This document shows, one piece after another, positions 3,457 to 64,000 of a stretch of 64,000 nucleotides of DNA; position 1 is the stretch's first letter, and each line of letters begins with the position of its first letter. The stretch is from an uncultured bacterium. Its GTDB lineage: Bacteria > Cyanobacteriota > Cyanobacteriia > CAZCXK01. Below the pieces are notes generated by a model that searched no databases, was not told the origin of the DNA, and saw only the letters and a list, made by a program, of their open reading frames with translations. The translations under genes were made by a program, and so were the position numbers. The stretch is taken from contig CAZCXK010000013.1 of assembly GCA_964502605.1 (NCBI GenBank), positions 703-64,702 of the forward strand, written 5' to 3'.

Positions 3457-3960
3457 CTAGAACCCAACGGATGGGAACAGCAGGCAATCCAGTGTGATAC
3501 CAAACCGCTGTCTCAGAAGCAACCTGCAGTTCATGGGGACTAACAGCATCAAAGAGAGCCAACGCAATCCACTGGTTTTGACAACGTGGCTATCACTCGA
3601 GCGCACCGGGTCGCGGTAGATCCCTCGAGCTGCAATCCGTTTACCCCATCGCCGTTCTATCGTGTCATCGATGCCCGTCACTAGAACTCCATTCGCAACA
3701 AAAACTTTGACCAACTGTTGCAGCAGTAATCGACTTGCCTGACGACTCGACCAGATCGCTCGGCTCAGCACCCGATGATAGTTTTGGAAGTGAGGTTCAT
3801 GCTCCATTCCCAGCGCCCGCAAAATTGCACTGACGGTGCGTTTGCCGGGTGCTACAATAGCACCCAAAAGCAGCACAAGTGCTGATTCCCAAACAGGTTT
3901 AGAAAATAACGGGGCAAACACCACAATCCAAGGGATTAACTCTTTCGGTAGCAAGTTCAT
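3457..3960 (-). pseudogene. IS701/IS4-like DDE transposase, N-terminal fragment (truncated)
   Basis: The N-terminus FSKPVWESALVLLLGAIVAPGKRTVSAILRALGMEHEPHFQNYHRVLSRAIWSS ... GIDDTIERRWGKRIAARGIYRDPVRSS is characteristic of the IS701-like transposase family. The ORF ends at ~167 aa, whereas full-length family members are >350 aa. Confidence 0.55.
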
Positions 3961-6254: not shown

Positions 6255-6272
6255 AGGGGTAGATGGGGTGGT

Positions 6273-6337
6273 AAGTTTTGAGTTCTAAGTTTTGAGTTCT
6301 AAGTTTTGAGTTCTAAGTTTTGAGTTTCGAGTTCTAG
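6273..6337. repeat. Tandem direct repeat, 14-bp unit (AAGTTTTGAGTTCT) x4-5
   Basis: Read directly: gtaagttttgagttctaagttttgagttctaagttttgagttctaagttttgagtttcgagttctag. It starts about 19 nt upstream of the ABC transporter start codon on the minus strand. Confidence 0.85.
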
Positions 6338-7320: not shown

Positions 7321-9615
7321 CTATGTTTTAGAGAGTGCAACGGGTCGCACGTCAATATTGCGATCAAACAAAATGCGCGGCGTCAGCAAGATTCTAATCA
7401 AAATCATCAGTGATTGAAACTCACCCGGAGTATGGCGACTTTTCCATTGCCCAGGGCGGCAAAACAGCAGTTTGATCAGGCGGCGCTGGTGTTCAAGGCT
7501 GGCAGCCTCCAGCATGATGCGAACCGTTGGAAACTCGTTGTGAAACCCTGTACGCACTACCTGCCCATGAAAGCATAAGTTTTCTTCTAAGATCTCTAGG
7601 TCAACATTGAGAGGGGTGGCAGCTGAGTCAACGCTGGGGAAGCCCGCTTGAGTTAGCTCAACTTCGACTCCGACCTCCGAAATCATGCGTGTTGTGCCCC
7701 AAAATGTTTGCTGCCCCAGGCTCAGTCGCACCGTTCGGCGCAGATCAAACCATTCATGCACATTAGGACGCGGCACATCAAGCAAGATTAACAGGGCAAT
7801 GCTGAGCATGATCAGGTTATAGGCGCTCCAAATCCAGCCGAGGTCAAAGCCGTGCATCCGTTGTGCCATTTTTGCTGCGGCTTCTGGCGATAACGTAGAC
7901 ATCTCCGCATCATGCACAATCGAGAGGCCAAGGTTAATCCACAGGCTAACGGCAGTTGCAATAAACATAACGACTAGCGGCCAAGCAAGCGACCAGTTGA
8001 AGGAATAGCGATCGCTTGCCGTCCCTTTCGGAGTCACCTTAAACCCTTTACCAAATGGAATCAGCATCGACTGAATAGCTGTCAGCGCTAGTGGGAAGCA
8101 GAGCACCAGCGAATAAATATCAGAAAGCAAGGCCGAGCGCGAGCGATAGTTGAGCCATGCAAAGACGGCCATCTGTACCAAATAGTAGGGCAGAAAGAAA
8201 TACAGCAACTCAGACGGAGATGCCCGCAGAGGAATTGCTTCAAGAAACGAATAGGCCAGCGGCATGAGCAAAAAGCCGACGCGTGAGATGCTGGTAAACC
8301 AGTGCAACAGCCCTTCTAGATAGGCTAGGCGCTGCACCGGGCGCAGTCCTGGAATCGTCAACGGATTCGATTGGATAAAAAACGCTTGCAACGTGCCACG
8401 GGCCCAGCGAATGCGCTGGAGCGCTTGAGAAGAAATATTTTCGGCAGCGAGGCCAGCGCTGAGCTTTTCGTCAAGATAGACTAAACGATAGCCCTCAGCC
8501 GCCAGACGAATCCCGGTAAAGTAGTCTTCACTCAACGATTCGGTAACAAACCCACCTGTCTTTTGCAAGGCGACTCGACGGACAACAAACGATGTGCCTG
8601 AACACACTACACCACCTGCTCCATCGCGCATTGGCTGAATCTGGCGATAAAACACTTCCTCCTCTGAGGTGAGCACATCTTCTAAGCCAAGGTTACGGGC
8701 AATTGGGTCAGGATTGTAGAAGCTTTGGGGTGTTTGAATCAGCCCTACGAGATCATCTTGAAAGAAGCCTACTGTGCGAGTGAGAAAGTTGGTAGTTGGT
8801 ACAAAGTCAGCGTCAAATATCGCAATCAGTTCACCAGTTGTGAGAGCGATCGCATTGTTGAGGTTCCCAGCTTTGGCATGGCGGTTATCCGATCGGGTGA
8901 TATATTCACAGCCCAACTCGTCCGCCAGTTGCTTAATCTCTGGGCGGCGTGTGTCATCGAGAAGATAGATGCGTTTGTTGGCATAGTCGAGCGCCTGACA
9001 CCCAATCACCGTTCGTCGCAAAATAAATGCGGGCTCATCATAGGTTGGAATCAGCACATCAACCCAAGGAACATAGGCTCCTGAGACAACATCTTGAGCC
9101 AAAATATCTGCTTCTGGGCGGCGATCGCGCACATTGAGCATCAGAAAAAGCTGGATGCAACTGTTCCCCAAAATCAGCAGCTCTAGCAAAAACAGAACCA
9201 GACTAAAGACCCCATTTAATGGAGTGCTTAGATTGAGAGTAGAGAGCGATCGCCAGACGAGATAACGCCCCAACAGCACTGACAAGATGCCGATGACAAT
9301 AAAGCGCGACCATTGGCGAGGCTGAGGTGAAACCCGCATCACGACGAAGACAATCAGCAGCAAAATTACAGTCGGAAACAGCAAATATTCCATGGCCACG
9401 CGGGGCACTTCCAGCCACAGCGGCGGGTTGGCCTGAGACATATCAAACGTGGAGAAAATGGCTGTGATTTGCCCCTGACCTGCAAACCAGGCTGCCACAA
9501 TTGTGGCAGCGAAACAAATCGACCCTAGCATCACAAGCGTTGCACCATGAGGCCGCCAGATTTTGTGTCGTCTCTGTCGATAGCTGAGTTCGTCTTGTGT
9601 CTGCGAAGGTGTCAT
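7321..9615 (-). CDS. Cellulose synthase-like family-2 glycosyltransferase (BcsA/CesA-type) with C-terminal PilZ domain
   Basis: GT2 motifs DDTRRP...DAD...TPQSFYN and QRIRWARG (QxxRW). Multiple TM helices. C-terminal RRTVRL...(PilZ RxxxR) plus a D/NxSxxG-like segment. Confidence 0.75.
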   Translation of the reverse strand: MTPSQTQDELSYRQRRHKIWRPHGATLVMLGSICFAATIVAAWFAGQGQITAIFSTFDMSQANPPLWLEVPRVAMEYLLFPTVILLLIVFVVMRVSPQPRQWSRFIVIGILSVLLGRYLVWRSLSTLNLSTPLNGVFSLVLFLLELLILGNSCIQLFLMLNVRDRRPEADILAQDVVSGAYVPWVDVLIPTYDEPAFILRRTVIGCQALDYANKRIYLLDDTRRPEIKQLADELGCEYITRSDNRHAKAGNLNNAIALTTGELIAIFDADFVPTTNFLTRTVGFFQDDLVGLIQTPQSFYNPDPIARNLGLEDVLTSEEEVFYRQIQPMRDGAGGVVCSGTSFVVRRVALQKTGGFVTESLSEDYFTGIRLAAEGYRLVYLDEKLSAGLAAENISSQALQRIRWARGTLQAFFIQSNPLTIPGLRPVQRLAYLEGLLHWFTSISRVGFLLMPLAYSFLEAIPLRASPSELLYFFLPYYLVQMAVFAWLNYRSRSALLSDIYSLVLCFPLALTAIQSMLIPFGKGFKVTPKGTASDRYSFNWSLAWPLVVMFIATAVSLWINLGLSIVHDAEMSTLSPEAAAKMAQRMHGFDLGWIWSAYNLIMLSIALLILLDVPRPNVHEWFDLRRTVRLSLGQQTFWGTTRMISEVGVEVELTQAGFPSVDSAATPLNVDLEILEENLCFHGQVVRTGFHNEFPTVRIMLEAASLEHQRRLIKLLFCRPGQWKSRHTPGEFQSLMILIRILLTPRILFDRNIDVRPVALSKT

Positions 9616-56207: not shown

Positions 56208-56287
56208 GGGTGCATCCTCATGATCAAATAGTCTAAATGATCAAATAGTCTAAATTTCACGACGAGTCAGTCAGATACGGGTTTTCT

Positions 56288-60649: not shown

Positions 60650-62308
60650 TCAGAGCGCGTAAAGTGAGATCGGCTCCAGCACCGGAGTCAACGTCAGGCC
60701 AAACTCGGCCTCAAAGCTAGTTTTCTTATACGCTAGACTCCACAGTTCTAGGCTGCAATCATCATCAGAGTTGCTGTTTTGCAAACAGAGACGCATCTCC
60801 TTATTATCAGCATGATAGTCACAGCGCAGGTCTTGAATCGCCCCAATCTGACGGCGATCAAGGGCAACTGCAACCCGCAACAGGGCGCTGAGCTGATCAA
60901 CCACCTGACGATGGAGTTTGCTGCCCAAATTGCGATAGTTTTCGTGTTTCTTTTTGGGAGCACTCTTGCGATGATAGCGAGCTAAGTTAGCAACTGTTTC
61001 AATCTCGACTTCGGTGTAGCCAAGCAGTTCGCCATTGCGAATCAGATAGTAAGAGTGTTTGTGGTGAGCAGCATGGCTGACGAAGTGGCCGCAGTTATGC
61101 AGGATAGCCGCTGCCCATAGCAGCCCTCGTTCTTCTACATGCCAGTTATGCAACAGACCTTGCGTCTGATCAAATAGGCTGAGCGCCAGTCGCGCCACAT
61201 GTTCGCCATGCGCCAGGTTAACGTGATACTTGTGCGCCAGTTTGAGGACACTGCGCTGACGGATAGAGCTTTGATAGCGCAGACGATCGTCGATCAGGCC
61301 ATGGGTGAGCATCCAATCCACCACGACACCTTCGCGCAGCGATCGCTCACAGAGCGTCACCGAGTCTACGTGCAGCAGCGTCATAGCCTCCTGGAGAATC
61401 ATTGCGCCAGCGAGGATAATTTCCGCCCGTTTATCAGACATTCCAGGGATGTTGAGTCGGTCTTTATAGTCGAGCTTGCGGAGACGAGTGACGATATCGT
61501 GCAAATCATGCAGGCTCAGTTCGTAGCCATTAAGAGTGCCTGGGGCTTCGCCAAGTTTATCATAAGCATGGATGGTCGCCAACGCTTCAATCGTGCCAGA
61601 GGTGCCTACGAGGCGGGGTACTTCACCTGGATGCAACTTCGACTGCAACTCTTCGATTGGGCGTTCTAACATGCCGCGCACGAATGCTTGCAGATAGGCA
61701 AACTCTTCGATGTTGATGGGGTCAGTCGTGATCAATTCAGCGGTGAGGCGCACGGCCCCTACTTTGGTGCTGCTAAGCACGCGGGGGTCATCTCCGTCGC
61801 CCAAAATCAGCTCGGTGGAGCCACCACCGATATCAATCATGATGTGGGGTTGGTGATGAAACTCCATACCCGACAACACGCCCAGATAGATGCGTCGTGC
61901 TTCTTCTTCCCCTGAAATAAGATTGACTGAGAAGCCCAGCTTTACTTCGACTGCATGCAGAAAATCTCGACCGTTGGGAGATTCTCGCACAGCGCTGGTG
62001 GCGACAGCGACAATGTCTTCGGCATGCATGCTTTTGGCGAGTTCGTAGCAGCGTTTGAGAGCGTCAAGCCCACGCTGCATGGCCTCAGGCGTAAGTCGCC
62101 CTGTTTCATGATCGCGATCGCCCAACCGCACCGTATCCTTCTCTTTAGCGATAATCGAAAACGAGGGTAGGTCAGGTTGAATCTTGACGATGACTAAATG
62201 AATGGAGTTAGTGCCGACATCAATAGCTGCCAAGATGCGATCGCGGCTAGCAGACGACAAAGAAGGCTGGAGCAAGTCATCATTGCTCGGGCGTGTTGAA
62301 TAAACCAT
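60650..62308 (-). CDS. ppx: Ppx/GppA-family exopolyphosphatase / guanosine pentaphosphate phosphohydrolase with C-terminal HD domain
   Basis: ILAAIDVGTNSIHLVIVKI (Ppx/GppA N-terminus); C-terminal HD motif (AAILHNCGHFVSHAAHHKHS). Confidence 0.8.
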   Translation of the reverse strand: MVYSTRPSNDDLLQPSLSSASRDRILAAIDVGTNSIHLVIVKIQPDLPSFSIIAKEKDTVRLGDRDHETGRLTPEAMQRGLDALKRCYELAKSMHAEDIVAVATSAVRESPNGRDFLHAVEVKLGFSVNLISGEEEARRIYLGVLSGMEFHHQPHIMIDIGGGSTELILGDGDDPRVLSSTKVGAVRLTAELITTDPINIEEFAYLQAFVRGMLERPIEELQSKLHPGEVPRLVGTSGTIEALATIHAYDKLGEAPGTLNGYELSLHDLHDIVTRLRKLDYKDRLNIPGMSDKRAEIILAGAMILQEAMTLLHVDSVTLCERSLREGVVVDWMLTHGLIDDRLRYQSSIRQRSVLKLAHKYHVNLAHGEHVARLALSLFDQTQGLLHNWHVEERGLLWAAAILHNCGHFVSHAAHHKHSYYLIRNGELLGYTEVEIETVANLARYHRKSAPKKKHENYRNLGSKLHRQVVDQLSALLRVAVALDRRQIGAIQDLRCDYHADNKEMRLCLQNSNSDDDCSLELWSLAYKKTSFEAEFGLTLTPVLEPISLYAL

Positions 62309-62643
62309 CTAACCGAGTTCCATGCCACAACGGGGTTACGTTCGGTCGCTACAGGCGACAGCATGAACCAACCGGATGGTTAACACCGAGATCAGCGACT
62401 GACCATCCAGCTAGAACACAGAGCTTGAGCGCAGAGATCAAATACAAAGTTTGGGCGATCGCCTCTCAAGCCAGTCCTGCTGGATTTGGCAGGTCAATGC
62501 TGAATAGAATCGCGGAAACTAAGCGTTAAATTGGGTTCTGCGGTATTGCTTTCGACCAGTTTATACCCAGGGTTGTCTCGATCTTATCGCGGTCTGTGCC
62601 GGATTCTGTGAGCGGCCTATTCAAATTTGTGGAGTTATAGGTA

Positions 62644-62731
62644 AAGTTTACAGCGGCTTTAGAGAAAGTTTACAGCGGCTTTAGAGTTAGTGATGACATT
62701 AAAGCGGTGATATAAAGCGGTGACATAAATT
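62644..62731. repeat. Cluster of direct repeats: 22-bp unit AAAGTTTACAGCGGCTTTAGAG x2 in tandem, then GTGAYATAAA-type motifs x3
   Basis: Read directly from the sequence. It lies between the parA-like stop (62928) and the ppx start (62308). Confidence 0.8.
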
Positions 62732-62927
62732 GGCGCAATCGTTGCTACGCACGGGCAAGGCGATCGCTAGGTGGCTGATGCAGTCAATTGATCAGGCATG
62801 TGGCATCAGGCATGTGGCACTAGGCACTCTTAGTCAAATCATTTCATCGACAAACCGTCGGATCGGGGTCAATTTGGCAACTATCACAGGGGCTCGGGCA
62901 TCGGCCCATGTCCCAACTGAGGCGAGG

Positions 62928-63533
62928 TCAAACACGCGTCAAATGGGTCAGCAGTTCTGCTCCCACCTGCTGATAATCTTGCCATGCCTGCTCTGCCTTG
63001 GGATCTTTGACCAAATACACGGGAATGCCGCCACGCGCAGCTTTCTGAAAGGCGGCAAAGCGGCGGACGCCCGCTGACAACACGGGCAAGTTGGCCTCCT
63101 GCAACATCGTTCTCACCTGCTCTCCACTGCGGCTTGGGTGCGGAGGAATAATCGTCAGCACGATGCGATAGCGAGTTGCCCCTACAGACTGGAGATATTC
63201 CAGCGTCAGGGCGAGGGCATCTAAGGCCAAAATATCTGGCGTCGTTGGCAGCACCAGCAGGTCGCAGCTATCAGTCAGGATCGCCAGTTCATTGGGCATG
63301 GGGCGAGCCTGCGTGTCAATGACAACGTGATGATAGCGGCGATTGCGCGCGGGCTGCCACTCATCCACCATTTCAAACGGCAGTTCTCCACGCTGGGCCC
63401 ATGCGGTGGCAGAGCGGTTGGGATCAGCATCAATCAGCAGCGTTGCGGCCTGGGTTTGCAAATAGGCCGCCAGATGAATTGCTGTCGTTGTTTTGCCGAC
63501 GCCGCCTTTAAAACTGGCGATGGTGATAATCAT
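62928..63533 (-). CDS. ParA/MinD-family P-loop ATPase (small orphan ParA-like)
   Basis: Deviant Walker A with signature lysine FKGGVGKTTTAIHLA; DADPNRSAT; ~200 aa. No ParB-like ORF is adjacent. Confidence 0.7.
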   Translation of the reverse strand: MIITIASFKGGVGKTTTAIHLAAYLQTQAATLLIDADPNRSATAWAQRGELPFEMVDEWQPARNRRYHHVVIDTQARPMPNELAILTDSCDLLVLPTTPDILALDALALTLEYLQSVGATRYRIVLTIIPPHPSRSGEQVRTMLQEANLPVLSAGVRRFAAFQKAARGGIPVYLVKDPKAEQAWQDYQQVGAELLTHLTRV

Positions 63534-63759
63534 GAGACGAATCCCTGCATTGGTCTGGGGTTCTGGCTGTATAGCCGATCAGCACAAGAAAGATATTCTA
63601 AAGAAGGTTCATGCTGATGCTCATTCCTCAAGTGAGTTAAAACTTGAGTCAGGCTCCAGGATGAGGAATACTCCTGCGGGGGCTGTGAGATTCATTGGCT
63701 CATTCCTAACGGCAACGGCAACAGCAACCCAACTGATATTAGATGTCTTCCTTCTGACT

Positions 63760-64000
63760 ATGCTGACGCATTCTCACAAACCTGAGTCAACGTGGCAAGC
63801 AGTATTTCGGCTGTTGCGGTGGCACAAACCTGCCGGACGGCTGATTTTGATGATCCCGGCATTATGGGCCCTGTTTTTGGGAGCACACAGCGTCGAAGCC
63901 GGAGCATTGCCGCCTCTCCCGTTGGTGGGGGTAATTATTATCGGCAGTTTGGCGACCAGTGCTGCCGGATGTGTCATCAATGATCTCTGGGATCGCAATA
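63760..64000 (+). CDS. UbiA-family 4-hydroxybenzoate polyprenyltransferase (plastoquinone/ubiquinone pathway), partial (C-terminus beyond window)
   Basis: Hand translation from ATG 63760: MLTHSHKPESTWQAVFRLLRWHKPAGRLILMIPALWALFLGAH...GCVINDLWDRN. It contains the UbiA aspartate-rich NDxxDxxxD start. Open to the window end; absent from the track because it is partial. Confidence 0.6.
   Translation, partial: MLTHSHKPESTWQAVFRLLRWHKPAGRLILMIPALWALFLGAHSVEAGALPPLPLVGVIIIGSLATSAAGCVINDLWDRN

Follow-up and report, generated by a model that had tools for sequence, protein, structure and literature searches.

In a 64,000-nucleotide stretch of DNA from an uncultured cyanobacterium (contig CAZCXK010000013.1, positions 703 to 64,702; hereafter the window), a gene for a small ParA-like ATPase stands without a partner gene upstream of the exopolyphosphatase gene ppx, and clusters of direct repeats lie in the spacer between the two genes. 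The arrangement raises the question of whether ATPase and repeats together form a centromere-like or positioning locus, as an initial annotation of the sequence proposed. Our analysis leads us to consider it rather probable that the gene, here called parA, encodes a domesticated type Ib ParA protein and that the repeats, rather than being a centromere, arose as lineage-specific duplications upstream of ppx.

The parA gene occupies positions 62928..63533 on the minus strand and encodes a protein of 201 aa (N-terminus MIITIASFKGGVGKTTT). Its product is a ParA/MinD-family ATPase with the signature lysine, as initially annotated. The deviant Walker A motif KGGVGKT lies at residues 9-15, with Lys9 as the signature residue, Walker A' is represented by D35/D37 and Walker B by D73, and all of these are invariant in the alignment with relatives. 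The Pfam model CbiA matched at 54.9 bits against a cut-off of 25.4, and AAA_31 likewise exceeded its cut-off; the best NCBIfam model, ParA_partition (NF041546), scored 91.1 bits and fell below its cut-off of 180. With Walker A already at residue 9 and no N-terminal helix-turn-helix, the protein has the small, ParF-like architecture of type Ib. The nearest solved structure is PDB 3CWQ (209 aa, end-to-end match, E = 1.5e-73), whose record is titled 'ParA family chromosome partitioning protein' and for which a literature search returned unrelated docking work only; similarity to the McdA-like structures 6NON, 6NOO and 6NOP was confined to the P-loop region. The gene is under strong purifying selection, with dN of 0.14-0.27 against orthologs, saturated dS and dN/dS of ~0.04-0.18. 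ParF-type ATPases form ATP-dependent dimers, bind DNA non-specifically and are released when triggered by a partner. By analogy, the product most likely works like other ParA ATPases, dimerizing on ATP, binding the nucleoid non-specifically and being released by a partner protein.

Such a partner is not encoded nearby: with no ParB, ParG or McdB-like gene in its vicinity, parA is a true orphan locally. On the parA strand, 62309-62940 contains no open reading frame (ORF) of more than 33 aa. None of the small spacer ORFs on either strand was conserved in relatives; those tested comprised 78 aa (plus strand), 33 aa and 32 aa (minus strand) and 115 aa (antisense), the last of which was rejected as a conserved gene when its similarity proved to be a mere shadow of the parA 3' end. 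A small McdB- or ParG-like adaptor gene in the spacer, which the initial annotation had entertained, is therefore not borne out by any conserved ORF. A tblastn search of the 64-kb window with the ParG-like and ParB-like partners of relatives gave no match. When 11 partner proteins were compared with the spacer, the top match reached 18.5 bits, a score also attained by 63 of 300 dinucleotide shuffles; on this count, we ruled out a decayed ParG-like gene, for which the one-frame matches QYRRTQF and QQDWLERR might have spoken. The hallmarks of a chromosomal ParABS (Soj/Spo0J) system were also missing from the window, where we found neither a ParB-like match, including among the scanned large ORFs, nor a parS-like site with up to 3 mismatches allowed; a canonical ParB/parS system thus did not turn up. 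The other large ORFs scanned are of the sort expected on the chromosome of a filamentous cyanobacterium, among them hetR, tatC, metG, ksgA and a gene for an AcsF-like cyclase. The absence of a ParB-like neighbor noted at the outset holds beyond the window, as none of the ~12 chromosomal ortholog loci inspected, which represent 11 distinct gene arrangements, had a partner gene.

A protein search with the parA product returned 5346 homologs. The best 120 of these were all at least 66% identical, many of them on Mb-size contigs, and came mostly from genomes or metagenome-assembled genomes (MAGs) of Leptolyngbya-like cyanobacteria, Oculatella, Elainella, Thermoleptolyngbya, Phormidesmis and Halomicronema. 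The parA gene of the window falls in a chromosomal, partner-less clade (66-79% identical) distinguished by the residues DADP, instead of DGDP, and W59. Relatives of at most 63% identity are mostly plasmid-type cassettes, and in most of those whose downstream region was examined, a partner gene lies directly 3' of parA. Some of these partners are small, one exceeding the Pfam RHH_1 cut-off and the ParG matches remaining below theirs, and others are ~240 aa long with weak, below-cut-off matches to ParB_N. Plasmid records matching the parA product numbered 224, including Planktothrix, Synechocystis, Nostoc, Thermus and Deinococcus. One of them names the parA neighbor ParG, and among the records listed, the plasmid genes of Planktothrix, Synechocystis, Nostoc and Thermus are 55-62% identical.

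Several of the partnered relatives examined also carry iteron arrays upstream of parA, with degenerate, regularly spaced copies: eight in L008, seven in L027 and five in L016 (L numbers are our designations of comparison loci). These arrays (L008:3174-3619, L027:4692-4988 and L016:4655-4950) provide reference examples of centromere-like arrays in the family; in L008, the eight copies end in GAGTACGCAAAA and recur at ~55-bp spacing. No array was found upstream of the window's parA. Like ParF-ParG of TP228, the 3CWQ ParA and the cyanobacterial plasmid ParA-ParG systems, the window thus encodes a deviant Walker A ATPase of ~200 aa without an N-terminal DNA-binding domain. Unlike these type Ib partition systems, its parA lacks a ParG/ParB-like partner and an iteron array and sits in a chromosomal housekeeping context, and the product scores below the NF041546 cut-off and carries DADP for DGDP in addition to W59.

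Synteny, whose comparison the initial annotation had suggested, showed that the orphan parA recurs in other genomes. In the window, parA is followed by ppx (60650..62308, minus strand; 552 aa with a Ppx-GppA domain, domain III and an HD domain), and the 5' part of a UbiA-family prenyltransferase gene, ubiA (63760..64000, plus strand), lies divergently upstream and runs off the window. The order ubiA, parA, ppx is found likewise in L043, L046/47 and L003. In L044 and L045, ubiA again lies upstream, and parA is followed by an alcohol dehydrogenase-type gene and another gene, respectively; in L010, parA next to ubiA has an in-frame stop. The remaining arrangements are tsaE, parA, a 312-aa gene and ppx in L128; tsaE, parA and PNPOx in L129; a methyltransferase gene, parA and ppx in L130; and an upstream gene, parA and an unnamed ORF of 283-301 aa in the Thermoleptolyngbya group (L004-L007). 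Overall, ppx is downstream of parA in 6 of the 11 contexts and ubiA upstream in 7.

For comparison, a metagenome scan with Ppx yielded 80 loci at 61-72% identity, and in none of these did an orthologous parA precede ppx; L122 held merely an opposite-strand ParA-like gene of 34% identity. Because 49 of these 80 parA-less loci carry ubiA directly upstream of and divergent from ppx, often with an intergenic gap of ~50-100 nt (approximate boundaries), we regard ubiA and ppx as an ancestral pair that came to enclose parA. An element conserved before ppx in the parA-less genomes, TAGRATATCGTTATT, now stands before parA in the window, L043 and L045. The window's version, TTTAGAATATCTTTC, lies at 63592-63600 on the minus strand, and its promoter-like core TAGAATATC (63592..63600, with a -10-like TAGAAT at 63600-63595) matches TAGRATATC. 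This core was present in all nine aligned loci (three parA-bearing and six parA-less), with eight of nine positions invariant and the fourth either A or G.

By its sequence, the TAGRATATC element is a putative promoter, and the most economical explanation is an insertion of parA that separated the ppx coding sequence from its promoter. The alternative, recurrent loss of parA, is less attractive because the gene would have had to be excised precisely and independently many times. The position of parA inside the ancestral pair explains its adjacency to both ubiA and ppx without a functional link; selected linkage of parA and ppx was accordingly ruled out, and the association of the two genes looks inherited rather than functional.

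What, then, are the repeats? The spacer between parA and ppx (62309..62927, minus strand) is 619 bp long, compared with 148-351 nt in orthologous spacers, an excess of ~270-470 nt, and holds neither a conserved ORF nor a member of an Rfam family. A repeat search and Tandem Repeats Finder (TRF) identified three arrays: 2.1-2.4 copies of the 14-bp unit ATCAGGCATGTGGC at 62791..62826, 2.7 copies of the 13-bp unit TGACATAAAGCGG at 62694..62729, and a tandem duplication of a 22-bp unit, its two copies 100% identical, at 62643..62686. The clusters reported in the initial annotation are thus real, and its description of them as immediately 3' of parA was only slightly generous, as the nearest, the 14-bp array, starts ~100 nt past the parA stop codon. 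Read on the ppx strand, the 22-bp unit is CTCTAAAGCCG-CTGTAAACTTT, and its duplication yields CTCTAAAG-CCG-CTGTAAAC-TTT twice, that is, four CTnTAAA motifs in an 11-bp phase. The 13-bp and 22-bp units have in common a minus-strand core, CCGCTKTAWA, with three exact copies in 62647-62720 (~75 bp) and one elsewhere in the window, against an expectation of 0.28 for the whole window; a near copy read by eye, CCGCTTTAAT, lies at ~62698. An assembly artefact can be dismissed, since contigs from two other sequencing runs (L001 and L002) reproduce the spacer without a single base difference.

In 842 kb of related cyanobacterial loci, TRF found such arrays at a density of ~10 per 100 kb but nowhere else three or more of them within 250 bp, from which it follows that the clustering exceeds chance. 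Neither the 14-bp nor the 13-bp array is matched in the orthologous spacers of L043, L046 and L003, and of the 22-bp unit, the CTGTAAAyTT part aligns with L043. Two-copy tandem duplications were also seen between other genes of the window and in the spacers of relatives, so that short intergenic duplications appear to be a general trait of this genome's spacers; further short intergenic tandem repeats in the window lie at 6272-6333 (14 bp x3.9) and 56220-56255 (17 bp x2.1).

All three arrays are located 3' of parA, at ~55-240 nt before a promoter-like block that is conserved upstream of ppx (62557..62628, minus strand; 75% identity to L043 over 73 nt), which contains a -10-like hexamer, TAAGAT, at 62586-62581. 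The 22-bp array ends ~55 nt upstream of this hexamer. The block could be aligned in four ppx-linked spacers (window, L043, L046 and L003), where the relatives have TAGAAT, TAATAT or TAAAAT as the hexamer, and a similar element was read directly in the sequence of L130. From this conservation, we infer that the block is probably the present ppx-proximal promoter. In L043, the closest relative, a near-perfect, terminator-like 23-nt palindrome (96% complementary) at positions 1763-1809 shortly follows the parA stop codon, which hints that parA and ppx may be separate transcription units there. An Rfam scan of 61800-64000 gave one chance-level match only (E = 0.73, group II intron D5), which stems from a hairpin with a 13-bp stem in the long ppx leader (62365-62422, minus strand). 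RNA folding compared with shuffles was not notable for either the parA 3' region (z = +1.5) or the ppx leader (z = -1.6).

The history that we favor would have begun with a plasmid partition cassette consisting of parA and a small ParG-like or short ParB-like gene; in those cassettes of this kind in which iterons were seen, the array precedes parA. Within a lineage of filamentous cyanobacteria, parA by itself would have been placed inside the divergent ubiA-ppx pair, directly downstream of the old ppx promoter, and in consequence would now be read from that promoter. Transcription of ppx would probably start at the second promoter-like block, in the spacer, with read-through as a possible further source. 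The three repeat clusters are probably recent, lineage-specific tandem duplications of ppx-upstream sequence, formed where the spacer has expanded, shortly before the ppx-proximal block. As part of the ppx upstream region, they could be neutral slippage products or amplified regulator sites, and the partner that releases ParA would be encoded elsewhere or have escaped recognition.

Several points weigh against this history. The direction of insertion is deduced from the spread of contexts and not from a dated phylogeny, and both promoter elements are putative, a simple sigma-70 scan having called neither. Three arrays within 184 bp are unusual, with nothing comparable in the 842 kb of comparison loci, and the 10-bp core common to two of the units resembles selected, repeated sites more than random slippage. 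Finally, the search covered 64 kb of the genome, and a partner gene or more repeat copies may lie elsewhere.

Among the alternatives, the one that survives best holds that the repeats are functional transcription-factor sites controlling ppx, amplified by duplication and serving, for example, phosphate control; we consider it possible but improbable. The regulator would be a response regulator of the OmpR/PhoB family such as SphR, bound to four 8-bp direct repeats with 3-bp linkers. Pho boxes are built of three or more 8-bp direct repeats with 3-bp linkers, and the 22-bp duplication reproduces this 8+3 geometry in four units with an 11-bp phase (PMC1906773), upstream of the conserved promoter-like block with its -10-like element and before a gene of phosphate metabolism. 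CTnTAAA motifs recur in two of four orthologous spacers: in that of L043, two CTrTAAA copies spaced by 15 bp precede the ppx-proximal block, and that of L046 has three copies and one near copy (by eye) on both sides of it. The clustering of CCGCTKTAWA, with three exact copies in ~75 bp and the near copy, also fits repeated sites, and Nostocales-type ppx upstream regions hold a different, paired CTTTAAA motif. In five loci of the group that we take as Nostocales-type (L097, L108, L112, L092 and L103), a conserved GGCAACTTTAAAnnnCTTTAAATAGTCAC with two CTTTAAA motifs 10 bp apart lies ~220-385 nt upstream of ppx and is a possible regulator site of that gene.

Unlike authentic Pho boxes, however, the repeats match the cyanobacterial Pho-box consensus CTTAACCT poorly (3-5 of 8 positions, hand count), and the array lies ~55 nt from the -10-like hexamer, where ~10 nt would be expected for a Pho box. 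Nor is the pattern conserved across ppx promoters. CTrTAAA is absent from the Oculatella (L003) spacer, and CTnTAAA is missing from most of the 80 other ppx upstream regions, so we rejected it as a general ppx motif; because the motif was derived from the same sequences, its recurrence in L043 and L046 is no independent test. The perfect 22-bp copies, moreover, point to recent duplication rather than to long-maintained sites. The secondary suggestion of the initial annotation, that the repeats are regulatory sites for ppx, nonetheless fits better than its primary one, given the location of the arrays upstream of the ppx-proximal block and the motif in two orthologous spacers; it is the step from there to a dedicated regulator array that we judge improbable.

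More doubtful is the possibility that the orphan clade represents the Type 2 McdA of beta-cyanobacteria, which would position carboxysomes with an mcdB gene encoded elsewhere. Type 2 McdA proteins have been defined by the signature lysine, two extra threonines after Walker A, a length of 202-253 aa, two tryptophans adjoining Walker A' and three further McdA-specific regions, with carboxysome genes (ccm operon, ccmK3/K4) in the neighborhood, and Type 2 mcdB genes by their location immediately downstream and by a product that is disordered, has a Q-rich coiled coil and carries a tryptophan within the last four residues; the two genes are adjacent in ~82% of genomes that have both (MacCready et al. 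2020, PMC7182216). Like these proteins, the window's product is a small, ParF-like, chromosomally encoded cyanobacterial ParA with the signature lysine and the two extra threonines (KGGVGKTTT). The orphan-clade rows that were read have lengths of 196-227 aa, near the published range, and two conserved tryptophans lie near Walker A', W45 being invariant family-wide and W59 specific to the orphan clade; the comparison was made by the published criteria. The TTT feature does not discriminate, because the plasmid relatives have it too. Against the McdA assignment, neither an mcdB-like ORF (disordered, Q-rich, C-terminal Trp) nor a carboxysome shell gene was present in any of ~12 contexts, and no BMC-domain gene was found among the window's scanned large ORFs or in the fetched flanks; L044 alone has a ChpXY gene, ~3 kb away. 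In the CcmK4 neighborhoods of Gloeothece, Microcystis, Pleurocapsales and Chroococcopsis, where a genuine Type 2 McdA was sought, no ParA was found.

The centromere proposal itself, in which the repeats would be the binding site of an unrecognized ParA adaptor and the locus a chromosomal positioning or partition module, we regard as very unlikely. It has in its favor that a repeat cluster beside a ParA gene is statistically unusual by the 842-kb comparison and that two repeat units have a core in common. Centromere repeats also lie downstream of the operon in some type Ib loci, such as par2 of pB171. The spacer, however, has no adaptor ORF, conserved or otherwise, and the remnant of a ParG-like gene is not significant (18.5 bits, equalled by 63/300 shuffles). 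ParA itself is 66-79% conserved, yet none of the orthologous spacers has the repeats. Their anatomy differs as well: the iteron arrays seen in the family have five to eight degenerate copies upstream of parA, whereas the window has three unrelated or half-related units in 2-2.7 near-perfect, head-to-tail copies downstream, and nothing comparable to iterons lies upstream of its parA. Copy number, position, the lack of an adaptor and absence from orthologous spacers thus all speak against the initial interpretation of the repeats as the adaptor's binding site and remove the 'centromere' as a false lead.

Least probable of all, in our estimate, is that in filamentous cyanobacteria the ATPase positions polyphosphate (polyP) granules, or granules bearing Ppx, on the nucleoid. 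In S. elongatus, a 2026 study described periodic, nucleoid-associated polyP granules whose placement does not depend on McdAB and has no known mechanism (PMC13556221), and parA lies behind the ancestral ppx promoter and has been kept directly upstream of ppx in six contexts that span three upstream neighbors (ubiA, tsaE and a methyltransferase gene). This synteny is, however, fully explained by descent, and parA persists under selection apart from ppx in L044, L045, L129 and the Thermoleptolyngbya group. A genuine polyP link would be of consequence for understanding how the granules are spaced; its present support is the inherited synteny.

A mobile element or miniature inverted-repeat transposable element (MITE) was ruled out, as neither the spacer nor its repeat units had copies elsewhere in the 64-kb window and the spacer had none in any fetched locus. 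An apparent inverted repeat consists merely of two GCGATCGC-containing sites, which we take to be HIP1-type palindromes.

If parA was indeed domesticated as proposed, the locus shows how a plasmid partition ATPase lost its partner and centromere and came under the control of a host promoter. Orphan ParA-like ATPases are a kind already known, to which this locus adds a new member with a history of its origin. PpfA, ParC, MipZ, PomZ and PldP are orphan ParA-like positioning ATPases. Like these proteins, the window's product is a ParA/MinD ATPase encoded without ParB and would be expected to use the nucleoid as its matrix; unlike it, they have known cargos or partners, often encoded nearby, whereas the only clue here is the inherited synteny with ppx and ubiA. 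Orphan ParA-like ATPases have repeatedly turned out to position cargos other than DNA, which makes this strongly conserved cyanobacterial orphan clade a reasonable target for work on intracellular organization.

Four further observations concern genes at these loci. The ubiA-linked parA of L010 (L010:5001-5603), from the MAG 'Cyanobacteria bacterium P01_F01_bin.150', contains an in-frame stop (KDAE*ARAMF) and altered conserved residues (DTDPNCSA) and is a probable pseudogene or sequencing error. A conserved protein of 337-356 aa without a Pfam family is encoded next to ubiA in L045 (1678-2691), L046 (1678-2691) and L044 (1843-2913); its sequence suggests a Cys-rich, zinc-ribbon-like motif near the N-terminus, a hydrophobic segment and a region resembling a coiled coil at the C-terminus, and it is not McdB-like. 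In L129, a called ORF of 109 aa (7330-7659) is made wholly of AEGRRQK-type repeats and probably reflects a tandem repeat in the DNA that was mistaken for a gene. Far from parA in the window itself, a 167-aa DDE_5 transposase fragment that covers the first half of the model only (3457-3960, minus strand) lies beside a gene for an RTX-repeat protein and may be the remnant of an insertion sequence.

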